64,000 nt of DNA, taken from an uncultured bacterium. GTDB lineage: Bacteria; Patescibacteriota; Minisyncoccia; Phycocordibacterales; CAIZLB01. The DNA lies in NCBI GenBank assembly GCA_903821355.1, contig CAIJKW010000030.1, positions 27,897-91,896 of the forward strand. Direction: 5' to 3'. The translations under genes were made by a program, and so were the position numbers. Shown one piece after another: positions 2,666 to 64,000 of this stretch. How positions within the stretch are numbered: the first letter of the stretch is position 1; every line of letters starts with the position of its first letter. Under the pieces are notes generated by a model. The model ran no database searches. It was not told the origin of the DNA and was given only the letters and a program-made list of their open reading frames with translations.

Positions 2666-2822
2666 AACGGTTTGCCAAAATATGCAGAATAAACCTGAGT
2701 TGGTGGGGTTTTAGGGCGGTTTGGAGATTGACAGTGGGGAGGTTGTTGTGGTATGGTTTTGGGGAACAAGCACCTTTAATAATCCAGCGACAGGTGCTTC
2801 AAACCTCAGACAACTCATTTAA

Positions 2823-3128
2823 ATGCACACTCACACAGTTCTTGTTAATGTATTGACATGTGTCTGGTACGTTTTTGTCATCATCTTTTGGATTATCAAT
2901 ACCAAGTTATGTTTACATGAAGACGGCGATGGTGGTGAATCTGATATCTTGTTCGCGTGTCGGTGTATTGGGTACACCTTTTTCACTATCGGACTCATCC
3001 TGATGCTTATCGGTGGTATCGACCGAAGTGATATGACAGCCACCATTAGCGGCTTTGTGCTTTTGACTTTTGGTCATGGCTTGATACTCTATGCACGCTT
3101 AAGACATCTGATGCCTAACGTACAATAA
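2823..3128 (+). CDS. hypothetical small membrane protein
   Basis: 101-aa ORF with 2-3 hydrophobic segments, followed by a terminator. No homology recognised. Confidence 0.35.
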   Translation: MHTHTVLVNVLTCVWYVFVIIFWIINTKLCLHEDGDGGESDILFACRCIGYTFFTIGLILMLIGGIDRSDMTATISGFVLLTFGHGLILYARLRHLMPNVQ

Positions 3129-3135
3129 CCAATAA

Positions 3136-3188
3136 CCCGTCCTGCGACGACACGTGGAAAATCCACCTGTCGCAGCAGGCGGGTTTTT
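3136..3188 (+). terminator. Rho-independent terminator
   Basis: cccgtcctgcgac…gtcgcagcaggcggg hairpin followed by TTTTT. Confidence 0.5.
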
Positions 3189-3274
3189 CAATTGAATAAA
3201 AATTTTATAAAATATTTGGTTATTCTTTATAAAAAATTTATAGAAATATCATCTCATTTTGATACTCTTGCGGG

Positions 3275-3829
3275 ATGGCAAAATCTAAGAAAAATAATAT
3301 TGCATATATTGATGGTGCAAATTTGCATAAGGGAATCAAAACACTTCCTTGGGATTTTGATCATGCAAAATTTAGAGTATGGCTTTTGGAGAAATATAAT
3401 GTAGTTGAAGCTTATATATTTTTAGGATTGGTAAGCAGTGATAAAAATATGGAGTTATATTTAAGACTTGAGTCTCAGGGTTACATACTTATTTTTAAAG
3501 AGGTTGTTGTTAATTCAAACGGAAGGACAAAAGGAAATTGCGATGCTGATTTAATAGTTCTTTTGATGCAACATCTTTATGGGGGTTTATTTGACAAAGC
3601 TATTTTGATTTCTAGCGATGGAGATTATATACCTTTAATTAAATTATTAATTCATGAGAACAAGATTGAGGTTTTGGTATCTCCGTATAACAGAAGTCTT
3701 TGTTCTATTATATTAAGAAGATCCAATGTAAGAATTGTCTATATCGATGATCAGAAATATTTACTTAAAATTGAGAATAATAATTATCTTGAAAATAAAA
3801 AAGCCGCCGATGAAGACGGAACATCATAA
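3275..3829 (+). CDS. NYN-domain (LabA/YacP-like, PIN-related) protein
   Basis: Motifs IAYIDGANLH…GNCDADL…ISSDGDY match the NYN/LabA-like acidic signature. Confidence 0.6.
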   Translation: MAKSKKNNIAYIDGANLHKGIKTLPWDFDHAKFRVWLLEKYNVVEAYIFLGLVSSDKNMELYLRLESQGYILIFKEVVVNSNGRTKGNCDADLIVLLMQHLYGGLFDKAILISSDGDYIPLIKLLIHENKIEVLVSPYNRSLCSIILRRSNVRIVYIDDQKYLLKIENNNYLENKKAADEDGTS

Positions 3830-3970
3830 GTAGCTTTTTTCTATTTGCGCGCGATGTATATATAATAGGTGCGTGCTTTTAAAAAGTCAAGAAAATGAGC
3901 AGCTTTACACCTTAATTATTTCATGTCTAAACTGAATGGGGGTTAAGTGGAGATTGAAAAAGGTTGGAAA

Positions 3971-4630
3971 ATGAGATATAATACTCCCATGATTATTACG
4001 TATTTGGGCCGTGAGGCTGTTAAAATTCAGTATGGAGATTTGGTTATAGCTTTTAATCCGCCAGCAAAGACATCGTCATATAAGATGAATAGATTTGGAG
4101 CTGATATTGCGCTTGAAACATTACCACATGAGGATATGTGTGGAGGATCTGAGATGGTTTATGGGGACAAGAAACCCTTCGTCATTTCTGGCCCTGGAGA
4201 ATATGAGGTGAATAGTATTTTTATAAAAGGTCTAGCAGGAGAGTCCTCATATGATATTGACAAAGATGATCCAAAACTTATTAACACAATATATGCATTA
4301 ACAGTTGAAGGCATTAATATGTTGTATCTTGGTGCGCAAGACGGTCCACTTCCAAAAGACACTGCGGATGCAATTGATTCTGTTGATATTCTATTTTTGC
4401 CAATAGGCGGAAACGGTGTTTTGGATGCAAAAACAGCTTACAAGCTTGCTATGAATTTGGAACCTAAAATTATTATTCCAATTCATTTTGATGGCAAGAA
4501 GGATGAGGCATTAACCTCGTTCTTAAAAGAAGCTGGAGAGCATGGTGACGCTATAGATAAATTAACAATCAAGAAAAAAGATCTTGATGGTAAAAATGGT
4601 GATATAATAGTTTTGTTACCACAACAATAA
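3971..4630 (+). CDS. metal-dependent hydrolase, beta-lactamase fold (UPF0173-like)
   Basis: N-terminus MRYNTPMIITYLGREAVKIQYGDLVIAFNP and C-terminal IIIPIHFD resemble MBL-fold UPF0173 hydrolases. The ORF may alternatively start at 3947. Confidence 0.6.
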   Translation: MRYNTPMIITYLGREAVKIQYGDLVIAFNPPAKTSSYKMNRFGADIALETLPHEDMCGGSEMVYGDKKPFVISGPGEYEVNSIFIKGLAGESSYDIDKDDPKLINTIYALTVEGINMLYLGAQDGPLPKDTADAIDSVDILFLPIGGNGVLDAKTAYKLAMNLEPKIIIPIHFDGKKDEALTSFLKEAGEHGDAIDKLTIKKKDLDGKNGDIIVLLPQQ

Positions 4631-4697
4631 AAGATTTTTAAGCTTAGAAATCACGTTAAAATCATTAGATTTTGACGAAAAAATAAAAAATAAAAAT

Positions 4698-5273
4698 ATG
4701 TTATCAAAACATTTTGAAAAAATAAGGCAAAAATCAGAAAACTATAGAATGGTCTATGCCTTTACTGTGTCCCTTGTTTTTACTGGGATTATTTCAGGTT
4801 TATGGGTCTTTTCAATGTTTATCCCCAATTTCAATAGTGATTCTAATATCGCAAATAGTGCCAATGTCTCTGGCGCAGTTGATGGAAAGGGTGTTGGTGA
4901 GAGTCAAAATTATTTAAGCCCAACTGGCGTTGTGAAGCAGGAAGGTGGAAATATCGTAGATTCTTTTTGGAATGCTATCAAAGGAATAAAAAGCAATCCT
5001 TATATGGGTGGTCAGTTTGAAGTAAGGTCTGACGGCACATCTGGATCAGAGAATTCAAATAAATTATCTACAACAACTGCAAGCGGTATCACAGTAGAAG
5101 TTGGTAATTCAAATAGTGTTGATTCAAGTGTTGGCATTATTGTTCCAAGCGGATCTACCGGTGGTGGTTATGTTAATACTGTGAATTCAGGTGGGGCGAG
5201 CGCAGGTGGTGCGAGTGCGAGCGCAGTTGACGCTGGTAACGTAAATGACACTGACAGCGCTTCAGGAAATTAA
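4698..5273 (+). CDS. hypothetical membrane-anchored Gly/Ser-rich protein
   Basis: N-terminal TM (VYAFTVSLVFTGIISGLWVF) followed by a low-complexity G/S/N-rich region. Confidence 0.45.
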   Translation: MLSKHFEKIRQKSENYRMVYAFTVSLVFTGIISGLWVFSMFIPNFNSDSNIANSANVSGAVDGKGVGESQNYLSPTGVVKQEGGNIVDSFWNAIKGIKSNPYMGGQFEVRSDGTSGSENSNKLSTTTASGITVEVGNSNSVDSSVGIIVPSGSTGGGYVNTVNSGGASAGGASASAVDAGNVNDTDSASGN

Positions 5274-13587: not shown

Positions 13588-13594
13588 TCATGTG

Positions 13595-13676
13595 TGGGCG
13601 AGGAGGGACTCGAACCCTCAATCCTTACGGAACTAGTTCCTAAGACTAGCGCGTATACCAATTCCGCCACTCGCCC
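13595..13676 (-). tRNA. tRNA-Leu (anticodon UAG)
   Basis: Reverse complement GGGCGAG…CTCGCCCA forms a cloverleaf with anticodon loop CTTAGGA, a long variable arm and T-loop GGTTCGAGTCC. Confidence 0.8.
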
Positions 13677-13791
13677 ATATTTTGACTTTGCTTTATATCA
13701 GCTTTTTGGTTTGCTGAAATTTAAGAATTCAATATCTATATGAAGTTTAAGATTCTGGCTTAAATGTCTTCATAGAGTTATCGAACTCTTG

Positions 13792-13864
13792 TCCGCCCGG
13801 TAGGATTCGAACCTACGACCGTTCACTTAAGAGGCGACTGCTCTACCAACTGAGCTACGGGCGG
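13792..13864 (-). tRNA. tRNA-Lys (anticodon CUU)
   Basis: Reverse complement CCGCCCGTAGCTCAGTTGGTAGAGCAGTCGCCTCTTAAGTGAACGGTCGTAGGTTCGAATCCTACCGGGCGGA. Anticodon loop CTCTTAA. The top pair of the anticodon stem is non-Watson-Crick (G·A). Confidence 0.7.
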
Positions 13865-13926
13865 ATATGTTCATTATAGTAGCAAAAAAAGGTATTTAAT
13901 ACAACTATTTACGATCATGTTTGTAA

Positions 13927-14241
13927 CTATAATTCTAAGAAGATTATTGAGCAAATTCCTAGAACCATACCGACAATTTGAAGCGGGCTTAATCCTTCGT
14001 GAAAGAATACGTAACTTACCAGCAGTAATGTAGCGACGTTAAATATAACAAATATTATTGAAGCGATAGCTATGTTTTTGTATTTGAAACTAAAAGATAG
14101 AAATATTAAGGCTATTACATAAATTATTAATCCAATGACAAAAAACCAAGTGTTATTTTTTGAAACCCATTCTTTCATAAAAATATCCCCAGCTGTTAGA
14201 ACTAAACCTCCCGCTAAAACTAAGATTATCCCAGTATTCAT
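13927..14241 (-). CDS. small multidrug-resistance/DMT-like 4-TM membrane protein
   Basis: 104 aa with four hydrophobic helices (SMR/EamA-half-like topology), embedded between tRNA genes. Confidence 0.45.
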   Translation of the reverse strand: MNTGIILVLAGGLVLTAGDIFMKEWVSKNNTWFFVIGLIIYVIALIFLSFSFKYKNIAIASIIFVIFNVATLLLVSYVFFHEGLSPLQIVGMVLGICSIIFLEL

Positions 14242-14249
14242 TTTATTGG

Positions 14250-14332
14250 TGCTCAGGGCGGGACTCGAACCCGCACAGGCTTTCGCCTACAACATTTTAA
14301 GTGTTGCGTGTCTACCATTCCACCACCCGAGC
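14250..14332 (-). tRNA. tRNA-Leu (anticodon UAA)
   Basis: Reverse complement GCTCGGGTGGTGGAATGGTAGACACGCAACACTTAAAATGTTG… Anticodon loop CTTAAAA, long variable arm, T-loop GGTTCGAGTCC. Confidence 0.8.
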
Positions 14333-14800
14333 TTTTTTATTTAAGCCTCTATGAGTTGGCTGTAAACTGTGACAATTTGGACAAAGTATCTGTAGGTTAG
14401 TTAGTCTATTGTCTCTACTATCACCGTTTATGTGATCTAACTCAAGAGGTAATCTACCATCTTTTGTGGTTTTGTTCCACCCGCACATCTCACACTTTTT
14501 TTCCTTTAAACCATCTTTAAATAATCTTTTCTTAAGTTTATAACTTTGAAATGAGCTGCCTTTTACTAAAATTTCTTTAGTTGGAATAAGTGGTATTTTA
14601 TTTTAAAATTTTTTGCCCTTACTCCAACCTCTGCCTGTAAAATGTTTTATGGATAGGCCGTATTCTAAAACATATTTCTTGATTTGAGAATAGTTTCCAC
14701 CAGCTTCAACTAATCCAAGTCTTTTCAAAACTTGTCTATAGCTTGTGGAATCAGCAACTGATTTTATTAAATTGTCTTTTGACCACTTTCTTTTTCTCAT
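14312..14800 (-). pseudogene. HNH endonuclease gene interrupted by a single in-frame TAA (plus 14603-14605); C-terminal part overlaps tRNA-Leu(UAA)
   Basis: Upstream ORF 14606..14800 (MRKRKW…SKGKKF*) is in the same frame as a downstream reading frame. That frame encodes …CEMCGWNKTTKDGRLPLELDHINGDSRDNRLTNLQILCPNCHS…, a canonical HNH motif. Confidence 0.6.
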
Positions 14801-14841
14801 TTAAGAATAACAAACAAATATGTAAAAACTACTTTTACATG

Positions 14842-14914
14842 AGGCGTAGGCCGGGATCGAACCGGCGTATAACGATTTTGCAGATCGCCGCGTTAACCAC
14901 TTCGCCACTACGCC
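14842..14914 (-). tRNA. tRNA-Cys (anticodon GCA)
   Basis: Reverse complement GGCGTAGTGGCGAAGTGGTTAACGCGGCGATCTGCAAAATCGTT…GGTTCGATCCCGGCCTACGCC. Anticodon loop CTGCAAA. Confidence 0.8.
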
Positions 14915-22329: not shown

Positions 22330-22412
22330 GCGCAGGTGGCAGAGTGGTCAATTGCATCTGACTGTAAATCAGACGCCTTCGGGCTACGTAGGTTCAAATC
22401 CTACCCTGCGCA
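22330..22412 (+). tRNA. tRNA-Tyr (anticodon GUA)
   Basis: GCGCAGGTGGCAGAGTGG…TCTGACTGTAAATCAGA…(long variable arm)…GTAGGTTCAAATCCTACCCTGCGCA. Confidence 0.8.
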
Positions 22413-22471
22413 CAAGTCCGAGAATCGGGGTTTACCCACAATTATTAGATCGGGCCAATATATATAAAAAC

Positions 22472-22627
22472 ATGTCACAAACTAGATTAGTTAAGGTAGC
22501 AAACAAAAAGACAGGTGAGGTCTACCACACAAGTAAAAACAAGAAAAAGGTAGAGCGTAAGCTAAAGCTTATGAAATACAGCCCAAAGCTTCGCAAGCAC
22601 GTGGAGTTTAGTGAGATTAAAAAATAA
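22472..22627 (+). CDS. rpmG: 50S ribosomal protein L33 (non-zinc, C- form)
   Basis: MSQTRLVKVANKKTGEVYHTSKNKKKVERKLKLMKYSPKLRKHVEFSEIKK resembles L33 (YITTKNKRN…LELKKY.P..RKH…E.K). The upstream part of track ORF 22352..22627 overlaps tRNA-Tyr and is not coding. Confidence 0.7.
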   Translation: MSQTRLVKVANKKTGEVYHTSKNKKKVERKLKLMKYSPKLRKHVEFSEIKK

Positions 22628-22692
22628 TCTTCGTTATATTTATATTTCTAATTTAAGATAAGTCTTGATCTATAGAATTAATACAAAAAACG

Positions 22693-22720
22693 CCCAATTT
22701 GTGGGTGTTTTTTGTATATA
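22693..22720. terminator. Bidirectional terminator between rpmG and the minus-strand small proteins
   Basis: aaaaaacgcccaa-atttg-tgggtgtttttt. Confidence 0.5.
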
Positions 22721-22752
22721 GTCTCTTGTATTTTGTGATTCTGTATATGATT

Positions 22753-23034
22753 CTATAATATGCCGATAATCAAATCGTAAGCAGGCTCACTTATTTCACC
22801 GTTGTCTTTTTTACGATTCAGTTCCGCAATAAGTTCTTCAGAGCTTGTTGGTTTTGTTGCCGAGTCTTTTATACTATCCAACACCGAAATAGCCTCATTT
22901 TGGCATGAGAGCATGTCCTTAGACATTTGTTCTTTGTAGGTCTGATTAAATTGACTTATGATAGCGCGCAGGTCATCGCAAACCACCTGCATGCTAAAAC
23001 TCATCTCCATAGACATTGGTCCTTCTTTTCCCAT
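22753..23034 (-). CDS. small hypothetical protein with C-terminal SHOCT-like motif (paralog A)
   Basis: C-terminus SSEELIAELNRKKDNGEISEPAYDLIIGIL, pattern L..L…G.IS/T..EY..L. Confidence 0.4.
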   Translation of the reverse strand: MGKEGPMSMEMSFSMQVVCDDLRAIISQFNQTYKEQMSKDMLSCQNEAISVLDSIKDSATKPTSSEELIAELNRKKDNGEISEPAYDLIIGIL

Positions 23035-23049
23035 TGTATTTTGTATTAG

Positions 23050-23385
23050 TTAGTAATAAGTTTGAGCCATTATTAGTCTGTAGGCTTTTTCACTCAAGGT
23101 GCCGTCTTTTTTGGCTTCATCTAACTTTCTCATAAGTTCTTCGGAGCTAATCTTGGGGCTAGTTGCTTTAATTGATTCAAGAGCTTCTGTTGCAGATCTT
23201 TGTATCTCAATTTCTTCTGCAGATAATTCTTTTTCAAATTTTTCATAACTTTCGTTGTAGCTGTGTATTGCATTATTTAGCCTGAAAGATATTTCATCCA
23301 CGTCAAAAAATGTTTCGGGTGTCTGATGTTTTTCGTTCATATTTTTGTGGTTAGTTGATAACACCCTAATTATAACAAAAGCCAC
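23050..23385 (-). CDS. small hypothetical protein with C-terminal SHOCT-like motif (paralog B)
   Basis: C-terminus SSEELMRKLDEAKKDGTLSEKAYRLIMAQ. Paralogous to 22753..23034. Confidence 0.4.
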   Translation of the reverse strand: MAFVIIRVLSTNHKNMNEKHQTPETFFDVDEISFRLNNAIHSYNESYEKFEKELSAEEIEIQRSATEALESIKATSPKISSEELMRKLDEAKKDGTLSEKAYRLIMAQTYY

Positions 23386-23524
23386 AGTATTAACAATCCG
23401 TTTCTAAGGGGGTGTAATAGGTGGGTTTATGCACGAACAGGTTGGCTTTTTGGCTAAAATAGATTAAGATAGGAGAACAAAACCAGATTTTGCAGGGGTG
23501 GTTTTGAAGATAGAGAACATAAAT

Positions 23525-23596
23525 GGGCCTATAGTTTCAATGGTAAAACGACGGTCTCCAAAACCGCAGTTCGAGGTTCGAGTCCTCGTGGGCCCG
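23525..23596 (+). tRNA. tRNA-Trp (anticodon CCA)
   Basis: GGGCCTATAGTTTCAATGGTAAAACGACGGTCTCCAAAACCGCAGTTCGAGGTTCGAGTCCTCGTGGGCCCG. Anticodon loop CTCCAAA. Confidence 0.8.
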
Positions 23597-23620
23597 CTAG
23601 AATAATGAGCGGAGCGAATA

Positions 23621-27512: not shown

Positions 27513-28271
27513 CTACCCCAACCCAACCACCCGCTCAAAATCCCTACTTTGCTCATACCTCTTGCCGTACGCCTTGCTCGCCTGATACAGCGCCATCAAA
27601 AGATGATTGATATTTTGATTTTCAATTTTTATGGCGACCTCCCTGAACCAATCGATAAAAAAAGAAAAATTACCAATCATAAACATCTCAGATTTTTCAT
27701 CCATAAAATCTGCAGAAACCTTAACCATGTCCTCCAGCCTCCCCGTGAATGCCTTGGCAACCAACTTAGCGTCAACTCCACTATATTGATTAAAAACACT
27801 TCTCGTCAGGTCTCCATGGACAATACTGTCTACGATAAATCTTTTATCGGTTATTGTTTGGCTAACTTCCTGAACAATCTTCTTTGAAGATCTCTTAATT
27901 GCTTCTCTAAAAGAAAGGCTTGGCTGAATACCGGTAAGCCTGCTTCCGATGGGCTCTTTAGTCACTTCCTGCCAAAGCGTCTCTATTGCTTTAGAACCAG
28001 AATATATTGTTATGGAACCAATTTTGACGATGGGGGACGGTGGCGGAATTGTTTGTTTGGTGGGGGTTTTTGAGGTGGGTAATTTATATATTTTTCTTTT
28101 CTTGTGAAGGGAGAAGGTTATTAGTTTTTTGCTGAGGAGTTTATTAATATTGTATTCGATGGTGCTTCTGGAGGTGGAGAGGCGTTTTGCGAGTGCCGCG
28201 AGGGTTCCGGGGAGAGTGAGGGAGAGGAGGATTTTTCTCTCGTGGGATGATAGATCGAGGTGGGTGGTCAT
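27513..28271 (-). CDS. putative winged-helix DNA-binding protein with uncharacterised C-terminal domain
   Basis: N-terminal HTH-like segment SSHERKILLSLTLPGTLAALAKRLSTSRSTIEYNINKLLSKKLI. The N-terminal coding DNA is G-rich. Confidence 0.4.
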   Translation of the reverse strand: MTTHLDLSSHERKILLSLTLPGTLAALAKRLSTSRSTIEYNINKLLSKKLITFSLHKKRKIYKLPTSKTPTKQTIPPPSPIVKIGSITIYSGSKAIETLWQEVTKEPIGSRLTGIQPSLSFREAIKRSSKKIVQEVSQTITDKRFIVDSIVHGDLTRSVFNQYSGVDAKLVAKAFTGRLEDMVKVSADFMDEKSEMFMIGNFSFFIDWFREVAIKIENQNINHLLMALYQASKAYGKRYEQSRDFERVVGLG

Positions 28272-39188: not shown

Positions 39189-39269
39189 GTGCCAGAGGTG
39201 GGACTTGAACCCACAAACCTTGCGGCGCTCGATTTTGAGTCGAGTATGTTTACCATTTCATCACTCTGG
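39189..39269 (-). tRNA. tRNA-Leu (anticodon CAA)
   Basis: Reverse complement GCCAGAGTGATGAAATGGTAAACATACTCGACTCAAAATCGAG…(long variable arm)…GTGGGTTCAAGTCCCACCTCTGGCA. Confidence 0.75.
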
Positions 39270-39384
39270 CCTATATTTTGTATAAATTGTACTACTAACC
39301 CCATCCAGTAGTAGATAGTATTATTCAATATCAACACGATGTCAACACTTTTGGCTATTTTCGGGGGTTAAATAATAAATATTT

Positions 39385-55059: not shown

Positions 55060-55758
55060 ATGGATAATTACAAGAGATTGAGAACGGCCTTTGCCATTGT
55101 TGGTGCACCTTCGTGCGCAAAAGGAACATGCGTTAAGTATGTTTTTGAAGACTTCTGCAAAAAAGCTGGCATCACGATGATCGACATTTCGGTTGGCCAG
55201 CTATTGAAGCGACACGTCAGCGAGATGAAGGACAGAAGACTTGCTGCGCAAATCTTGGACGATATGAATTCTGGACGCTTGGTATCTGACAGCGTTGTCA
55301 ACGCTGTCTTTGCTGACGCGATGGAAGATGCCGCCTCTCTGTATGGCGACACAGACGACCCGTTGATGATCGTCCTCGATGGTGTTCCAAAGACGGCTGG
55401 CCAAATCAAGCCTTCCGTCTCCTCTGTGACAGACAAGTTCAATGTTCCGGTGTCGGAATTCAACATCGTTCACATTTCCACCCCTCCGCATATCTGTGCT
55501 TACCGCATGGGGATTCAAGGGAGGAGAGACGGTATTGTGGAAGCCATTGTCGCCACTCGTTTCAAGGAATATTTCGAGAAGATTCTTCCGGCAATCAAGT
55601 TGCTGAAGGATTTTACCGACAACTCCGAATCCGAGTTCTATGAAATCAACGGTCAGTTCATGATTGATGAAGCCTACAGTTACCAGAAAAAACTCTTCAG
55701 TCACTTGTGGCCAGAGTACTTTCCGGGAATGGTTCGGCGGATTCCAATCACTGCCTGA
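55060..55758 (+). CDS. adenylate/nucleoside-monophosphate kinase-like protein with degenerate P-loop (GC ~50%, likely acquired)
   Basis: IVGAPSCAKGTCVKYVFEDF… against the adk consensus ILGPPGAGKGTQA. The LID/NMP-bind-like region SVGQLLKRHVSE…LDGVPKTAGQ is present. GC is far above background, so an antisense ORF also appears. Confidence 0.5.
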   Translation: MDNYKRLRTAFAIVGAPSCAKGTCVKYVFEDFCKKAGITMIDISVGQLLKRHVSEMKDRRLAAQILDDMNSGRLVSDSVVNAVFADAMEDAASLYGDTDDPLMIVLDGVPKTAGQIKPSVSSVTDKFNVPVSEFNIVHISTPPHICAYRMGIQGRRDGIVEAIVATRFKEYFEKILPAIKLLKDFTDNSESEFYEINGQFMIDEAYSYQKKLFSHLWPEYFPGMVRRIPITA

Positions 55759-58816: not shown

Positions 58817-58925
58817 ACGTCAGATACCATACACTAATTTAAAAATATGTTGTAATATTTTGTCAAATGTATTCACCTCACAGTTTTGCTATGCTTTAAA
58901 GGTAATTTTGCAAAAAAGTACTGAA

Positions 58926-60362
58926 ATGCTAAAAAAAGACTTCGAAAAATTAATAGCGTCAAAACTGCCAGAAGCTCCTGGAATCTATCTTTTCAAAAAA
59001 GGAAAAGATCTTCTTTATGTTGGCAAGGCAACAAGCTTGCGTCAGCGTGTTCGTAGTTATTTTTCTAATGACTTAATGAAAACTCGCGGGCGGCTTTTGG
59101 TTGACATGATTGCAACAGCCGACAAAATTGATTTTCAAAAAACGGATTCTGTTTTGGAAGCTCTGATTCTGGAGGCTCAATTCATAAAAGAACATCAACC
59201 AAAATATAATACTAAAGATAAGGACAATAAAAGTTATAATTATGTTGTGATAACGGAAGAAGACTTTCCTTGCGTGCTTGTGGTGCGTGGTAGAAACCTA
59301 GAACAAAACTTGAAAAACTTGAAGCAAAATCTTGGCGAGGAAAAATACAAATACACATTTGGTCCATATCCTTATGGAGGAGAATTAAAAGAGGCGTTAA
59401 AACTTATTAGAAAAATATTTCCATTCAGAGATAAATGTACTCCATTTTCAGAAATTAAAATAAATACTAAGTCGCATTCAGGCCAGTATCTAAGGCTATC
59501 TCCAAGGCCATGTTTTAACAGAACAATTGGTCTTTGCCCAGGGGTTTGTACTGGTGAAATATCAAAAAAAGATTACGCGACGCAGATAAAAAATATTAAA
59601 ATGTTTTTTGAGGGTAAAAAACCTGCGCTTCTCAAGTCTCTAACCAAACAAATGTCGGCATTTGCCAAAGAAAAAGAATTTGAAAAAGCTGGCCAAATTA
59701 AAAAAACAATTTTTGCGTTGAATCATATTCAAGATGTATCTTTAATGAAAAGAGTCGAGTCTGAAAGAATAAGAGTGGTTACTTCTGACGAAACAAATTC
59801 AACTAGTTTGGCAAAAAACCAAAGTCTTAGAATTGAAGCTTATGATATAGCCCACATGTCGGGGCAAAATATGGTTGGAGCTATGGTTGTGATGGAAAAT
59901 GGGGAACTAGTAAACGGCCTTTATAGAAAATTTATAATTAAAGGTTTCGATAAAGCAAATGACCCCGGCGCCCTTGCTGAAACAATTAAAAGAAGAGTAA
60001 ATCATCCAGAATGGGGCTTACCAGATATTATTGTGCTTGATGGAAATCAAATTCAACTCAAGCGTGCCGTTGAGACATGGAAAGAAATATTAGGCAGTGA
60101 ATCACTAAATCGAAAATATTCAGTAAATCAAAACGTCCTGTTTTGTAGTGTGGTAAAAGACCAGTCTCATAAAGCAAGAGAAGTATTGTTTTTTGATGAA
60201 GAAATGTGGAAAAAATCGCAAATGGAAATAGAAGAAAAATTTGGAATATCAAAAAAGACCCTGCAGGAGCAGATCGTTAAAATTAATACTGAGGCACATA
60301 GGTTTGTGATTGCTTTTCATAAAAAAAGAAGAGGTAAAAACTTTTTAAGTAATGTGCTTTAA
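58926..60362 (+). CDS. uvrC: excinuclease ABC subunit C (short form; C-terminal HhH region apparently absent)
   Basis: GIY-YIG domain (PGIYLFKKGKDLLYVGKATSLRQRVRSYF…) and UvrC homology region. About 480 aa against the typical ~600. Confidence 0.8.
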   Translation: MLKKDFEKLIASKLPEAPGIYLFKKGKDLLYVGKATSLRQRVRSYFSNDLMKTRGRLLVDMIATADKIDFQKTDSVLEALILEAQFIKEHQPKYNTKDKDNKSYNYVVITEEDFPCVLVVRGRNLEQNLKNLKQNLGEEKYKYTFGPYPYGGELKEALKLIRKIFPFRDKCTPFSEIKINTKSHSGQYLRLSPRPCFNRTIGLCPGVCTGEISKKDYATQIKNIKMFFEGKKPALLKSLTKQMSAFAKEKEFEKAGQIKKTIFALNHIQDVSLMKRVESERIRVVTSDETNSTSLAKNQSLRIEAYDIAHMSGQNMVGAMVVMENGELVNGLYRKFIIKGFDKANDPGALAETIKRRVNHPEWGLPDIIVLDGNQIQLKRAVETWKEILGSESLNRKYSVNQNVLFCSVVKDQSHKAREVLFFDEEMWKKSQMEIEEKFGISKKTLQEQIVKINTEAHRFVIAFHKKRRGKNFLSNVL

Positions 60363-60402
60363 ATCGTGGACACTAATTGTAAAGTCATTTATAATTAAAG
60401 GC

Positions 60403-63400
60403 ATGAAAATTTCCTTTAAAAAGCCCTTGATGCTTTCTCTTGTTTTGTTTGTTTTTTTATTTTCTTTCTCCTTATGGACACAAAAAGCTAATGCGGAAGA
60501 TGAAGATATAGATACCTACTTTGCCACAACAACAAACGCCAGCTGTGCTGATTACTATCACTTCAATGGTGTACAAATTGATGTAAAGCCAAGCATAATT
60601 CAATCTGTTGCAGGTGCTGATATGAACTTTTCCGGATCGATATTGAACAATAATGAATATCCAGTAGTCTCAGGCAGATTATTCGTAAAAATTTTCAGAG
60701 ATAGATCTACTAAAGATAATAATGGCCCTGATGTCTTAGACGCTTTTGTTGCACAAGATGGCTTATCTATAAAAGCCGGAGAGAAAATACCAGTCAATTT
60801 TAAATGGAAAATACCTGCTTATGCCTTGGGTGGAGATTATAAGATTGCCACATATTTTATTACTAGCGATAAATTCAACTTGGCTGGTCTTAGTTTTACG
60901 GACGATGTTGTTGCCGGTCTTTCAAGTTTTAAAGTTCTAGGACAACAAGATAAAGGGGTTTTTTTGAAAAAAGACGGAGTCAAAGTAAATAACAGCACCT
61001 ACGCTTTTGCTGCATATCCTCCAATACAAAGCCCTATTGATCCCGTAACAATAACAGTGCCTGTGACAAATACTACAGCAGAAAGAGTTGCTGTAAAAGT
61101 AGAATTCAACGTTTATAAATGGGATGCGCAGTCTTCTGAAAATAAAATAGATACTAGCACCAAAGTCGCAGTGATTGAGCCTGGAAAGACAATTTACATG
61201 CCGATGGTCATAAATGATAATAAGTCTTCGGTCTACTATACTGAAGTTGTATTGAAATATATGGATAGCAAATCCATATTGGGTATTAGATTTGTTAGAA
61301 ACGGCGTCACAATGCCAAGGATTAACTTTCCATCGATAAGTTCATATCCACTAGTTTCTGGACAAAAAAATAATATATTTGCTTGTTTTCATAATGCATC
61401 AAATAGCAACGCTCCAATTGACGGTAAATTAAAGATTGATATTTTGGGAGAAGATAATAACCCAATTTTATCATATGAGTATGATGGAAAAATTATAGGG
61501 GAGATGAGTGCTGTAAAACAAGAATTTGTTCCGCGTTCAACATACAAAGATTTTAAAATTCACGCGTCTTTATTTGAAGGATCGAAATTGGTAGATGAAG
61601 TATATATTCCATACAGCTGTAAGGAAATAGATCCAAATAATTGCGGATTTAACTTTGGTGATATATCTTCAAGTAAATGGCTGAAGCTTGTATTAGAGAT
61701 TGTTGGTCTACTAATATTGATTGGATTAATTGTTTTGTTTGCAAAGAGATCTAATAAGTTCAAGGAGTGGTATTCAAAATTAAGGATAAACAGAGTGAAG
61801 ACTTTCTTGTTTGTGTTACTTTTGATTATGTTTATGGGTTCAGGGTCTAGAGCTCATGCGGCCGCTCAGTTCACATTGACGGTTACAAATTATAATCCTT
61901 CATCAGGTACGGTCTCATACACTCCTAATCAAGCTAATTATGCTAATGGTACTAATGTGACGATTACTGCTTATCCAAATAGTGGTTATTCCGTTTCTTA
62001 TTTTAATGGTGGAGGGTGTCCAACGAATCCCGCTAATAACACTTGTGTTGTTAAGGTGACCGGAAATATAACTGTGTATGTTAGTATGAATCAAACAGCC
62101 AGTGGTAGTGGCAGCTCTAGCGGCAACTCTAGCGGTAGTGCCAGTGGTAGTTCTGGTAGTGGTGTTGCTGCTGGTTGCTTTACAATTAGTACTACAAACC
62201 CACAGAATACGACGACTTGTAATTTATGGCACTCAACTCTGAATCCAACAAATGATTGTAGTGTCAATAATCAAGTTACAGTCGATGTCACTGGTACAAA
62301 CTTGATGAAGGTTGGATATTCTAGTATGGGAGGGTACCCGGTTAAAATATTTAATCAAACAGATAATTCGATGAGTATCTCGTTTGAGAGATTGTCAGGT
62401 GAATTGGCTCAAAAGATAAGTTTTGCTGATACAAAGTTTTTTTCAAAATGTACTGGGTTTGGGGCGATTACTTTTGCTTGCAAGATGCCAACAATTACGA
62501 GTATAACTCCAGTCTTTGGTCCTACATCTGGAGGTACTCTTGTCACAGTCACTGGTACAAATTTTAATAATGCCAAATCTGTAAAAATTGGCCACGTCAC
62601 TGTGAGTAAGGCAAACACTACAATAATCAATGATAATACTTTAACTTTTGTAACTCCAGCTGAAGCCCCAGGATGGAAGAGCGTCAGTGTTCAGGGTAAT
62701 TGTTGGCAGAGTAAGTTTAGAAATTCAGATGCTGTGTTGCCTAATGCGTTTAATTATCAAAAAAATCTTAAAAATCCACCCTTTCCACCTGATGATGTTT
62801 GGAATTGGGACGGGAACTATAATACCGGAAGTGTATCCATTACCAATCCATACCTTTATTATTGGGCAACAACTTCACTGACTAGTAATTTAGATGGTGG
62901 TAGTTGGGCTAAGGCACTTGGAGATAATAATGCACAAATAAATTACGATTCATCCGTTACTTATTCTGATAGTGGTGTTGTTGTGCAAGATCAAGCGGTA
63001 ATACCCGCTGGAACAAAACTTCATTTTAATTTTGATGGAAGCACAATATCATCATCTCCATCACATGCATCACAGAAGATATCTTGGAATGGAACAGGCT
63101 TTACAGAAGACACACCTTATGGCAGTTGGGTAGATGATGCGGCATATCCTGATCAAGTCTGTACCAATGACAATTTTGTCACAAGTCAAACGGTTATCGA
63201 TCCATCAAGTGGCTTAATGAGGTCTGCGGATATATTTATACCACTTTCTGTTAATCCACCAGGTCAAGAACTTTCTTTCACTACAAGCACATACAGCGTT
63301 AATACAGACACTACTGAATGGGGTGCTCCACCTATAAAAAGTACTGATTCAGCAAGTTGGAGTTGTGATTCTCCAGATTCTTCATCCCCAATCTGTACTC

Positions 63401-64000
63401 CAGTGGTTGGTGGAATAAAGAAAATTAATATGTTTTATGCTCCTACTTATGGGTATTATTACTATGGATGGAGATGGACAAATCAACCAAGTGGAGTTTG
63501 TCACACAAACAATATTGCCCTAAATCAAAAGAAACAGTTGGTTGTTAATAATGGTGCTCTGCCTCAATATGATCTTGGCTCGGGTACTTGTATAGCCGGC
63601 GCCCTTGGTTGTACTAAAACATTTTCAGATTCATATGGAAACGTAGTCATGTGTTCTAAAACATATCCATATTATAATCCAGAAACTAATCACTGTTACT
63701 CAAATATTTCTGATTGGGTGGCATCTCTTCATACAGACTTAAATATTCCTGGCCAAAATTTTTTAGCTGATTATTACTACCCATACAAGTTAAAATTTAG
63801 AGAGTCAGTCTATAGTCTAAATTTAAGTGTTATTGCAACATCAACTACTGAAAACAGAACTCCCTCAGAGCCAGTGATTACAGGACCAAAAACAATAAGT
63901 GCCAATGTTCCTGCAACCTTTAGTGCTGTGTCCAACCTAGTTGTTGCAAAAAGTAAGTCAAATTCAATGTTAGCATCGGCAATATTTGCTATTAAAAAAT
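60403..64000 (+). CDS. very large cell-surface protein (at least 1,199 aa; partial, runs off window end) with IPT/TIG domain
   Basis: Uninterrupted frame from ATG 60403 to the window end. N-terminal signal peptide. Internal TM plus a second signal-like hydrophobic segment near 61690-61850. GS-rich linker. IPT/TIG-like block PTITSITPVFGPTSGGTLVTVTGTNFNNAKSVKIGHVTV at ~62490-62620. Cys-rich repeats further on. Confidence 0.6.
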   Translation, partial: MKISFKKPLMLSLVLFVFLFSFSLWTQKANAEDEDIDTYFATTTNASCADYYHFNGVQIDVKPSIIQSVAGADMNFSGSILNNNEYPVVSGRLFVKIFRDRSTKDNNGPDVLDAFVAQDGLSIKAGEKIPVNFKWKIPAYALGGDYKIATYFITSDKFNLAGLSFTDDVVAGLSSFKVLGQQDKGVFLKKDGVKVNNSTYAFAAYPPIQSPIDPVTITVPVTNTTAERVAVKVEFNVYKWDAQSSENKIDTSTKVAVIEPGKTIYMPMVINDNKSSVYYTEVVLKYMDSKSILGIRFVRNGVTMPRINFPSISSYPLVSGQKNNIFACFHNASNSNAPIDGKLKIDILGEDNNPILSYEYDGKIIGEMSAVKQEFVPRSTYKDFKIHASLFEGSKLVDEVYIPYSCKEIDPNNCGFNFGDISSSKWLKLVLEIVGLLILIGLIVLFAKRSNKFKEWYSKLRINRVKTFLFVLLLIMFMGSGSRAHAAAQFTLTVTNYNPSSGTVSYTPNQANYANGTNVTITAYPNSGYSVSYFNGGGCPTNPANNTCVVKVTGNITVYVSMNQTASGSGSSSGNSSGSASGSSGSGVAAGCFTISTTNPQNTTTCNLWHSTLNPTNDCSVNNQVTVDVTGTNLMKVGYSSMGGYPVKIFNQTDNSMSISFERLSGELAQKISFADTKFFSKCTGFGAITFACKMPTITSITPVFGPTSGGTLVTVTGTNFNNAKSVKIGHVTVSKANTTIINDNTLTFVTPAEAPGWKSVSVQGNCWQSKFRNSDAVLPNAFNYQKNLKNPPFPPDDVWNWDGNYNTGSVSITNPYLYYWATTSLTSNLDGGSWAKALGDNNAQINYDSSVTYSDSGVVVQDQAVIPAGTKLHFNFDGSTISSSPSHASQKISWNGTGFTEDTPYGSWVDDAAYPDQVCTNDNFVTSQTVIDPSSGLMRSADIFIPLSVNPPGQELSFTTSTYSVNTDTTEWGAPPIKSTDSASWSCDSPDSSSPICTPVVGGIKKINMFYAPTYGYYYYGWRWTNQPSGVCHTNNIALNQKKQLVVNNGALPQYDLGSGTCIAGALGCTKTFSDSYGNVVMCSKTYPYYNPETNHCYSNISDWVASLHTDLNIPGQNFLADYYYPYKLKFRESVYSLNLSVIATSTTENRTPSEPVITGPKTISANVPATFSAVSNLVVAKSKSNSMLASAIFAIKK

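Follow-up and report, generated by a model that had tools for sequence, protein, structure and literature searches.

In the 64,000-nucleotide (nt) stretch of DNA analysed here (the window; positions 27,897 to 91,896 of contig CAIJKW010000030.1, from an uncultured member of the Patescibacteriota), one open reading frame (ORF) starts with an ATG at position 60403 of the plus strand and is still open at the last base, 64000. We consider it probable, at roughly 0.7, that this ORF is a fusion of a conserved two-gene surface module of Patescibacteria, here called A and B, and that the precursor it encodes is cut at an internal signal peptide, which would leave A anchored in the membrane and B released yet bound to A. 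A preliminary description of this DNA, made from the letters alone, had read the ORF as an unbroken giant surface protein and had suggested that an unusual hairpin of two hydrophobic segments in mid-protein might reflect the fusion of two ancestral genes. Translation of the window confirms a frame of 1,199 codons from ATG 60403 to the window end with no stop, and every element named at the time is present: an N-terminal signal peptide, an ectodomain of ~390 amino acids (aa), a transmembrane (TM) segment, a basic loop, a second hydrophobic segment, a Gly/Ser-rich (GS) linker, Cys modules, and an IPT/TIG domain. On the opposite strand, the longest ORF within 60403-64000 is 73 aa.

The proposal of a gene fusion is strongly supported by the relatives of the ORF, in which A often stands alone. 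The best 80 of 179 genome loci, together with the window, were classified as fused or split by script, and 78 of them were informative. A and B are separate in 40 of these 78 loci and fused through the same hairpin in 38. In the split loci, A stops 32-69 aa past a conserved cysteine (Cys414), just after its TM segment and a brief basic tail. The A ORF of the fused loci runs on, up to 1,512 aa, by way of the basic loop and the second hydrophobic segment. Downstream of A, 24 of the 40 split loci have an ORF whose N-terminus resembles a signal peptide and which begins between -38 and +53 nt from the stop of A (all but two within -38 to +22 nt, with several 4-nt ATGA overlaps). Most of these downstream ORFs are long, with 22 of the 24 exceeding 300 aa, and 16 match by BLASTP the core region of B (B-core), described below. 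A gene-call library independent of the genome loci gave the same two forms: 115 of the 150 best representatives (of 1,326) are 881-1,965 aa long, and 114 of these 115 show the TM segment of A (TM1), a basic loop, and a second hydrophobic segment, while 35 are short, 32 of them ending in a TM segment.

The two states have interchanged repeatedly. On a neighbour-joining (NJ) tree of the A domain, Fitch parsimony calls for at least 11 changes between fused and split, with the window's clade uniformly fused. One sub-clade displays the change at nucleotide level, in that the fused loci L061, L074, and L076 differ from their split sisters L069, L071, and L078 by a single 28-nt gap. This gap removes the last codon of A, its stop, a 4-nt spacer, the ATG of B, and the n-region of B's signal peptide. 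As 28 = 27 + 1, the two genes, offset by +1, are brought into one frame as well. The lineage of the window would have lost the stop of A and the start codon of B together with the beginning of its signal peptide, giving one translated chain in which the basic tail of A would double as the n-region of the internal signal peptide. From these sequence comparisons, both the architecture and the evolutionary lability of the fusion are well supported. Several metagenome-assembled genomes (MAGs) carry two or three divergent A/B copies, and fused and split paralogues share one MAG in CAZLQC01 (L069, L074) and in JBAYWG01 (L025, L047, L050).

A different origin for the fused ORF would be an artefact of sequencing or assembly, or else a recent accident of the pseudogene kind, so that the locus really consists of two genes whose stop was lost by error. 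The two-gene state is, after all, common among relatives (40/78), and a frameshift farther downstream in contig L001, inside the TIG region, indicates that errors or decay do occur in such contigs. The preliminary description had itself pointed to 61740-61860 as the place where a stop or frameshift might have been missed. We find no support for one there: across 61650-61900 the A-B frame alone is open and the other two frames are full of stops, which counts against an artefact. The junction is judged to be inherited and not a sequencing error because five independent contigs of the same clade (L001, L002, L004, L005, and L006) keep the frame and conserve the loop peptide, at 56-68% overall identity. 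Closest to the N-terminal half is P0001 on L001 (56% identity, with uvrC upstream), which likewise reads through the TM segment, basic loop, second hydrophobic segment, and GS linker; the loop peptide is MFFIKLFKSRAT in L001 and EWYSKLRINRVK in the window. For the C-terminal half, the closest is P0045 on L002 (71% identity), whose ATG was called 36 nt into the contig. The 36 nt ahead of this ATG continue the open frame and encode VFFSKLSKSRAK, homologous to the loops of L001 and the window. L004, L005, and L006 carry complete fused ORFs of 1,430-1,462 aa with 57-66% identity in the A domain, and uvrC adjoins upstream in these three and in L001 (63-66% identity). With the same hairpin also found in 114/115 long representatives from unrelated samples, an artefact is in our judgement extremely improbable. 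The scan of genomes returned no identical locus, the best being 68%, and a scan of metagenomes with B-core as the query found no relative. Exact look-ups of the adjoining UvrA, and of UvrC from either of two possible starts, gave no match.

In L001, at 2640-2760, the fused ORF (859-2703) ends where the TIG domain of the window protein begins; the ORF that follows (2669-5017) is in a different frame and overlaps its end. L001 lacks most of the TIG domain, through either a real frameshift and deletion or an assembly error.

The junction of the window protein has the features expected of an internal signal peptide. TM1 (aa 428-447; 61684-61743), the anchor helix of A, falls within a helix spanning aa 423-449 in the AlphaFold model and corresponds to the C-terminal anchor of split relatives. 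It is followed by the basic loop (aa 448-466, KRSNKFKEWYSKLRINRVK; 61744-61800), which has eight Lys/Arg and one Asp/Glu and is predicted to be cytoplasmic, and then by the internal signal peptide or TM2 (aa 467-486, TFLFVLLLIMFMGSGSRAHA; 61801-61860), for which signal peptidase I cleavage is predicted after aa 486 (AHA↓AAQ). By rule-based criteria this second segment reads as a signal peptidase I substrate, having an h-region TFLFVLLLIMFMG, a c-region SGSRAHA↓A, and the loop with its eight Lys/Arg as an n-region. A peptide reaching from the loop through the second signal peptide into B would be, for example, ...SGSRAHAAAQFTLTV..., and mature B is predicted to begin AAQFTL. No lipobox with Cys at +1 is present, there being no Cys near either predicted cleavage site of the window protein. 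The loops of the fused forms have a median of 10 aa with a median of 5 Lys/Arg and 0 Asp/Glu, against 19 aa and 8 Lys/Arg in the window. A site with small residues at -3/-1 follows the second hydrophobic segment in 37/38 fused loci (-1 being Ala in 32), and the free partner signal peptides of split loci carry such a site in 22/22 cases (-1 being Ala in 19).

These features suggest the following topology and processing. The A part would lie outside, TM1 would lead inward, the loop would be cytoplasmic, and the former signal peptide of B would lead outward again and restart export, placing B outside as well; the loop is assigned to the cytoplasm, and both large parts to the outside, because the loop is short and strongly basic (the positive-inside rule). 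Signal peptidase I would then cut AHA↓AAQ after residue 486, leaving A on a two-helix hairpin and freeing mature B. We infer this cleavage from the sequence and favour it because a permanent TM2 would have no reason to keep a -3/-1 site. The domain content does fit the surface protein, perhaps adhesin-like, of the preliminary description, yet since the internal signal peptide retains its signal-peptidase site, the product in the cell is probably not a single giant protein. The end result may come near to the "two ordinary secreted proteins" that the same description had set against its own proposal, yet from a single ORF.

The alternative to cleavage is an uncleaved double-pass protein, with the second segment a permanent TM2 and one giant polypeptide displaying both ectodomains on a helical hairpin. 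Hydrophobic segments of 20 and about 13-20 residues with a basic loop between them are compatible with this form. Moreover, a C-terminal hydrophobic segment was found in 3/50 complete downstream or fused sequences (two of the three being short non-B ORFs of 148 and 163 aa), so that B relatives have no anchor of their own, and a tether to A would account for the retention of B where the genes are fused. Nor was an LPXTG or other sorting signal found in complete B relatives, where the NCBIfam sorting-signal models also gave no match; the C-terminus of the window protein lies beyond the window end. However, a covalent tether is not required, because B works untethered in the genomes where the genes are split, and the -3/-1 motif is retained in 37/38 fused forms, including old fused clades, and matches that of the 22/22 stand-alone partner signal peptides. 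We consider the double-pass form rather unlikely.

We would like to note several points that weigh against the reading of a cleaved precursor whose B half stays bound to A. The uncleaved double-pass form fits the sequence equally well. Signal peptides and TM segments were called from hydropathy and the -3/-1 rule, without a trained predictor, and the automatic picking of sites put several of them, and TM1 in two cases, in the wrong place, after which the sites were redone and checked by eye. The fused and split counts cover part of the known loci, and the NJ tree behind the number of switches is rough and without support values. The anchor status of B is read from relatives, as the window protein's own C-terminus lies beyond 64000. 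Binding of B by A is deduced from adjacency and fusion alone. The AlphaFold model of B-core, built on a three-sequence alignment, reached a predicted local distance difference test score (pLDDT) of 29.6 and was not used.

Another way to obtain two proteins from the locus would be separate translation of B from an internal start, GTG 61795 (codon 465), an in-frame codon that lies just 5' of the second hydrophobic segment and has AAGGA 8 nt upstream. This would make AAGGA-N8-GTG a ribosome-binding site of the Shine-Dalgarno (SD) type. SD motifs precede just 2/36 ORF starts across the window, with starts taken as those of the longest ORF, and by chance 4-15% of internal in-frame start codons have one. 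The corresponding position in L001, L004, L005, and L006 is without an SD motif, the loop contains no in-frame ATG, GTG, or TTG in 18/36 fused loci, and no promoter-like site was found near the junction in the window. With SD motifs hardly used, chance motifs common, and the relatives without one, AAGGA was dropped as a ribosome-binding site for B, and we regard an internal start as very unlikely.

The A part opens with a signal peptide (aa 1-31, KANA↓EDED; 60403-60495), whose residues 6-24 are helical in the AlphaFold model, followed by the ectodomain (60496-61620), which family homologues share and which is modelled as three tandem Ig-like beta-sandwiches at approximately aa 32-182, 183-302, and 303-406. 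The model of A is a confident one (pLDDT 89.8, predicted template modelling score 0.80), and fold comparison gave generic beta-sandwich matches only. A membrane-proximal stalk (61621-61683) carries the Cys406/Cys414 pair, both columns of which are nearly invariant in the alignment. A TM segment follows Cys414 in all informative loci, and the window protein has both the A domain and the TM anchor by which the A/B module is recognised.

No match to the A ectodomain was found in Pfam, NCBIfam, or the sequences of the PDB. A word-indexed protein search returned 44 homologues of A (E = 2e-157 to 3.7e-36), nearly all of them 430-520 aa long and often stand-alone proteins ending in a TM segment, and no Pfam domains were found among these 44. 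A profile search of a library of 1.84 billion proteins yielded 1,326 cluster representatives, 911 of them at E <= 1e-30, and a genome scan gave the 179 loci mentioned above. Nearly all of the 80 listed loci come from MAGs labelled as Patescibacteria or Candidate Phyla Radiation (CPR), with labels including Paceibacterota, Kaiserbacteria, and Moraniibacteriota. On these sequence searches, A is an unannotated family of the Patescibacteria. The Third Party Annotation (TPA) MAGs of L009, L014, L053, L060, and others are titled Saccharibacteria or Bdellovibrionales; these labels look automatic and may be wrong, since the named relatives are otherwise of the Paceibacteria type of CPR.

The B part of the window protein includes B-core, about aa 797-1150 (62791-63852), which starts DDVWNWDG. 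This region matches by BLASTP, in 48/61 partner sequences (E 1e-18 to 7e-4), the region that directly follows the partner's signal peptide. The mature start of many split partners resembles AEA↓KSVxW, and the same start follows the hairpin in fused loci. The window's clade inserts a GS linker, a Cys module, and a TIG domain between the signal peptide and B-core, and the window alone adds an InlB B-repeat-like domain (Flg_new_2, PF18998; match aa 494-558; 61861-62082). That match is marginal, at 28.3 bits against a gathering cut-off of 23.6, and the domain, which the preliminary description had not named, is absent from L001, L002, L004, L005, and L006. The GS linker (62083-62178) is also found in those five relatives. 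The Cys module (Cys592, 606, 619, 683, and 693; 62179-62484) is conserved in the window's clade and was assigned to no family, and the IPT/TIG Ig-like domain (PF01833; match aa 696-766; 62485-62757) scored 53.9 bits against a cut-off of 20.9 (E = 1.8e-14) and is also present in L004, L006, and P0045.

The B-core profile opens with a novel part, as its first ~255 positions gave no match in Pfam or the PDB. Behind this part lies a PKD domain, recognised at positions 260-360 by a match to that of 4xed (E = 6.6e-20). PKD_4 matches were obtained in 10/49 family members. In the window, the start of the PKD-like domain (63853-64000) is assigned from the family profile; cut by the window end, the piece is too short to score. 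The last 120 aa of the window protein align to residues 532-651 of the 1,274 in P0045 and to residues 1018-1135 of the 1,430 in L004, from which we estimate that ~295-625 residues lie beyond the window and that the full length is about 1,495-1,820 aa. Past the equivalent of the window end, the relatives complete the PKD-like domain and add more Ig-like modules. P0045 (L002:37-3861) has at aa ~800-1100 about eight BNR/Asp-box repeats (YIYTSTDxGxTW), propeller-like, which are absent from the other close relatives L004, L005, L006, P0084, and L001.

In all relatives of the window's clade the C-terminus is formed by a small domain that contains Cys and carries the motif ...KCSK.P.VIE[KR], and most B proteins (L004-L082 alignment) end, with no TM segment after it, in a small Cys domain bearing [VIL]-x-P-x-[IVWF]-x-E-x or NWKEVAP. 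This C-terminal domain had no match in Pfam or NCBIfam, including the sorting-signal models. This domain may be what keeps B attached to the cell.

Taken together, gene A would encode a signal peptide, three Ig-like beta-sandwiches, and a TM anchor at the C-terminus with a short basic tail in the cytoplasm, and gene B, normally beginning within a few bases of the stop of A, a signal peptide and an anchorless secreted protein, made up of the novel ~255-aa core, the PKD domain, variable modules, and the small conserved C-terminal domain. No third neighbour gene is conserved, as no other gene recurs in more than 8/80 loci, and A/B thus appears to be a self-contained pair. Adjacency and repeated fusion, a classic sign, make it likely that A and B work together, and for the same reason A is the presumed holder of B. 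Mature B would probably remain attached to A, forming the variable outer portion of a complex on the cell surface that may serve in adhesion or as a cell coat. Alignment columns average 33% identity in A, 17% in B-core, and 10% in the C-terminal region of B. The greater conservation of A than of B fits a constant anchor with a variable outer part, as in adhesins or receptor-binding proteins.

A cell coat would be the function if A/B formed a two-component surface layer (S-layer) of anchor and canopy instead of an adhesin. In the SlaA/SlaB S-layer of the Sulfolobales, encoded by adjacent genes, a beta-sandwich subunit with a C-terminal TM anchor holds a large anchorless partner. A/B resembles this system as a gene pair for an anchor and an anchorless partner, and an Ig-like, C-terminally TM-anchored protein paired with an anchorless one encoded next to it does recall two-component S-layers. 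In contrast, SlaA/SlaB is archaeal and not known in a fused form, A has no coiled-coil stalk, and no homology or specific fold similarity was found between A and known S-layer subunits. New classes of S-layer proteins in Paceibacterales, picked partly by multiple Ig-like domains and anchoring segments, are described in a preprint (10.1101/2024.05.28.596244), which gives no accession for comparison with A/B. The presence of the two or three divergent paralogues in several MAGs fits variable adhesins or receptor-binding proteins better than a lattice protein, as does the high variability of B relative to A (17% against 33%). A two-component S-layer seems to us improbable.

A bolder form of the proposal is that the fused A-B is a bacterial "polyprotein", cut by signal peptidase I into an anchor and a variable outer subunit that together form the main host-contact or coat complex of Paceibacteria-type CPR cells. 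We offer this as a tentative and speculative possibility; if true, switching between the fused and split states would be a simple way to tune the stoichiometry and coupling of the two subunits.

The closest topological parallels are viral. The polyproteins of flaviviruses, pestiviruses, and bunyaviruses, which the host signal peptidase cuts at internal signal peptides, have the same layout as A-B: an ectodomain with its TM anchor leads through a short stretch in the cytoplasm to an internal signal peptide, which bears a -3/-1 site and precedes the next ectodomain. These were the sole precedents for internal signal peptides found in the literature searched. They differ in belonging to eukaryotic endoplasmic reticulum systems and show no sequence relation, whereas A-B is a bacterial chromosomal pair that has been fused repeatedly and whose cleavage is predicted.

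Among bacteria, the SlpA precursor of Clostridioides difficile is one ORF giving two surface subunits, which remain associated after the cysteine protease Cwp84 has cut the precursor following export. The likeness to A-B lies in a single ORF giving two surface subunits that stay together, as we propose for A-B; SlpA differs in that its cut is not made at an internal signal peptide, that it has no TM hairpin midway, and that it is not homologous to A-B. Bacterial surface proteins with IPT/TIG, PKD, and InlB B-repeat domains share with the A/B family the design of a string of Ig-like domains and the domain vocabulary, the window protein carrying IPT/TIG and InlB B-repeat domains and the family PKD domains. 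Unlike them, the conserved cores A and B-core match no described family, and A/B has no LPXTG, lipobox, or other known anchor signal, the anchor being instead a separate or fused partner. Neither the A/B family nor internal cleavable signal peptides in bacterial chromosomal genes were described in the literature searched, which was incomplete, and this is weak evidence of novelty.

Little is known of the way in which CPR/Patescibacteria construct their cell surface and make contact with hosts, and the majority of their surface proteins are unannotated; A/B adds a large self-contained two-gene module without a Pfam or NCBIfam family. It also presents more than 100 natural cases of a bacterial protein that carries a complete signal peptide midway along the chain, immediately behind a TM anchor. 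If the predicted cleavage takes place, the A-B family would be a natural test set for the action of the Sec translocon and signal peptidase I at internal signal peptides, and would give gene annotators a rule against splitting or mis-merging genes of this type.

Upstream of the fused ORF on the same strand lie uvrB, an adk-like gene, uvrA, and uvrC. The uvrC ORF (58860-60362) is short (478-500 aa), scores 276 bits with TIGR00194 against a cut-off of 285, and has no helix-hairpin-helix domain. The adk-like ORF (55060-55758) has a weak ADK match (E = 5e-10). A promoter-like site, TGGACA-17-TATAAT (60367-60395, plus strand; 11/12 matches), precedes the fused ORF with its -10 box ending 7 nt 5' of the ATG, which suggests that the mRNA is leaderless or has a very short leader. 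TATAAT-like boxes ending 6-8 nt upstream are found at many starts of the window, for example 8597, 9147, 19586, 27513 (minus strand), and 60403. Because such boxes occur together with a near absence of SD motifs, leaderless mRNAs may be widespread in the source genome. No Rfam families other than tRNA were detected in the window. The seven tRNA genes lie at 13594-14914, 22330-23597, and 39189-39270, and four of them (Leu, Lys, Leu, and Cys) are loosely clustered on the minus strand.

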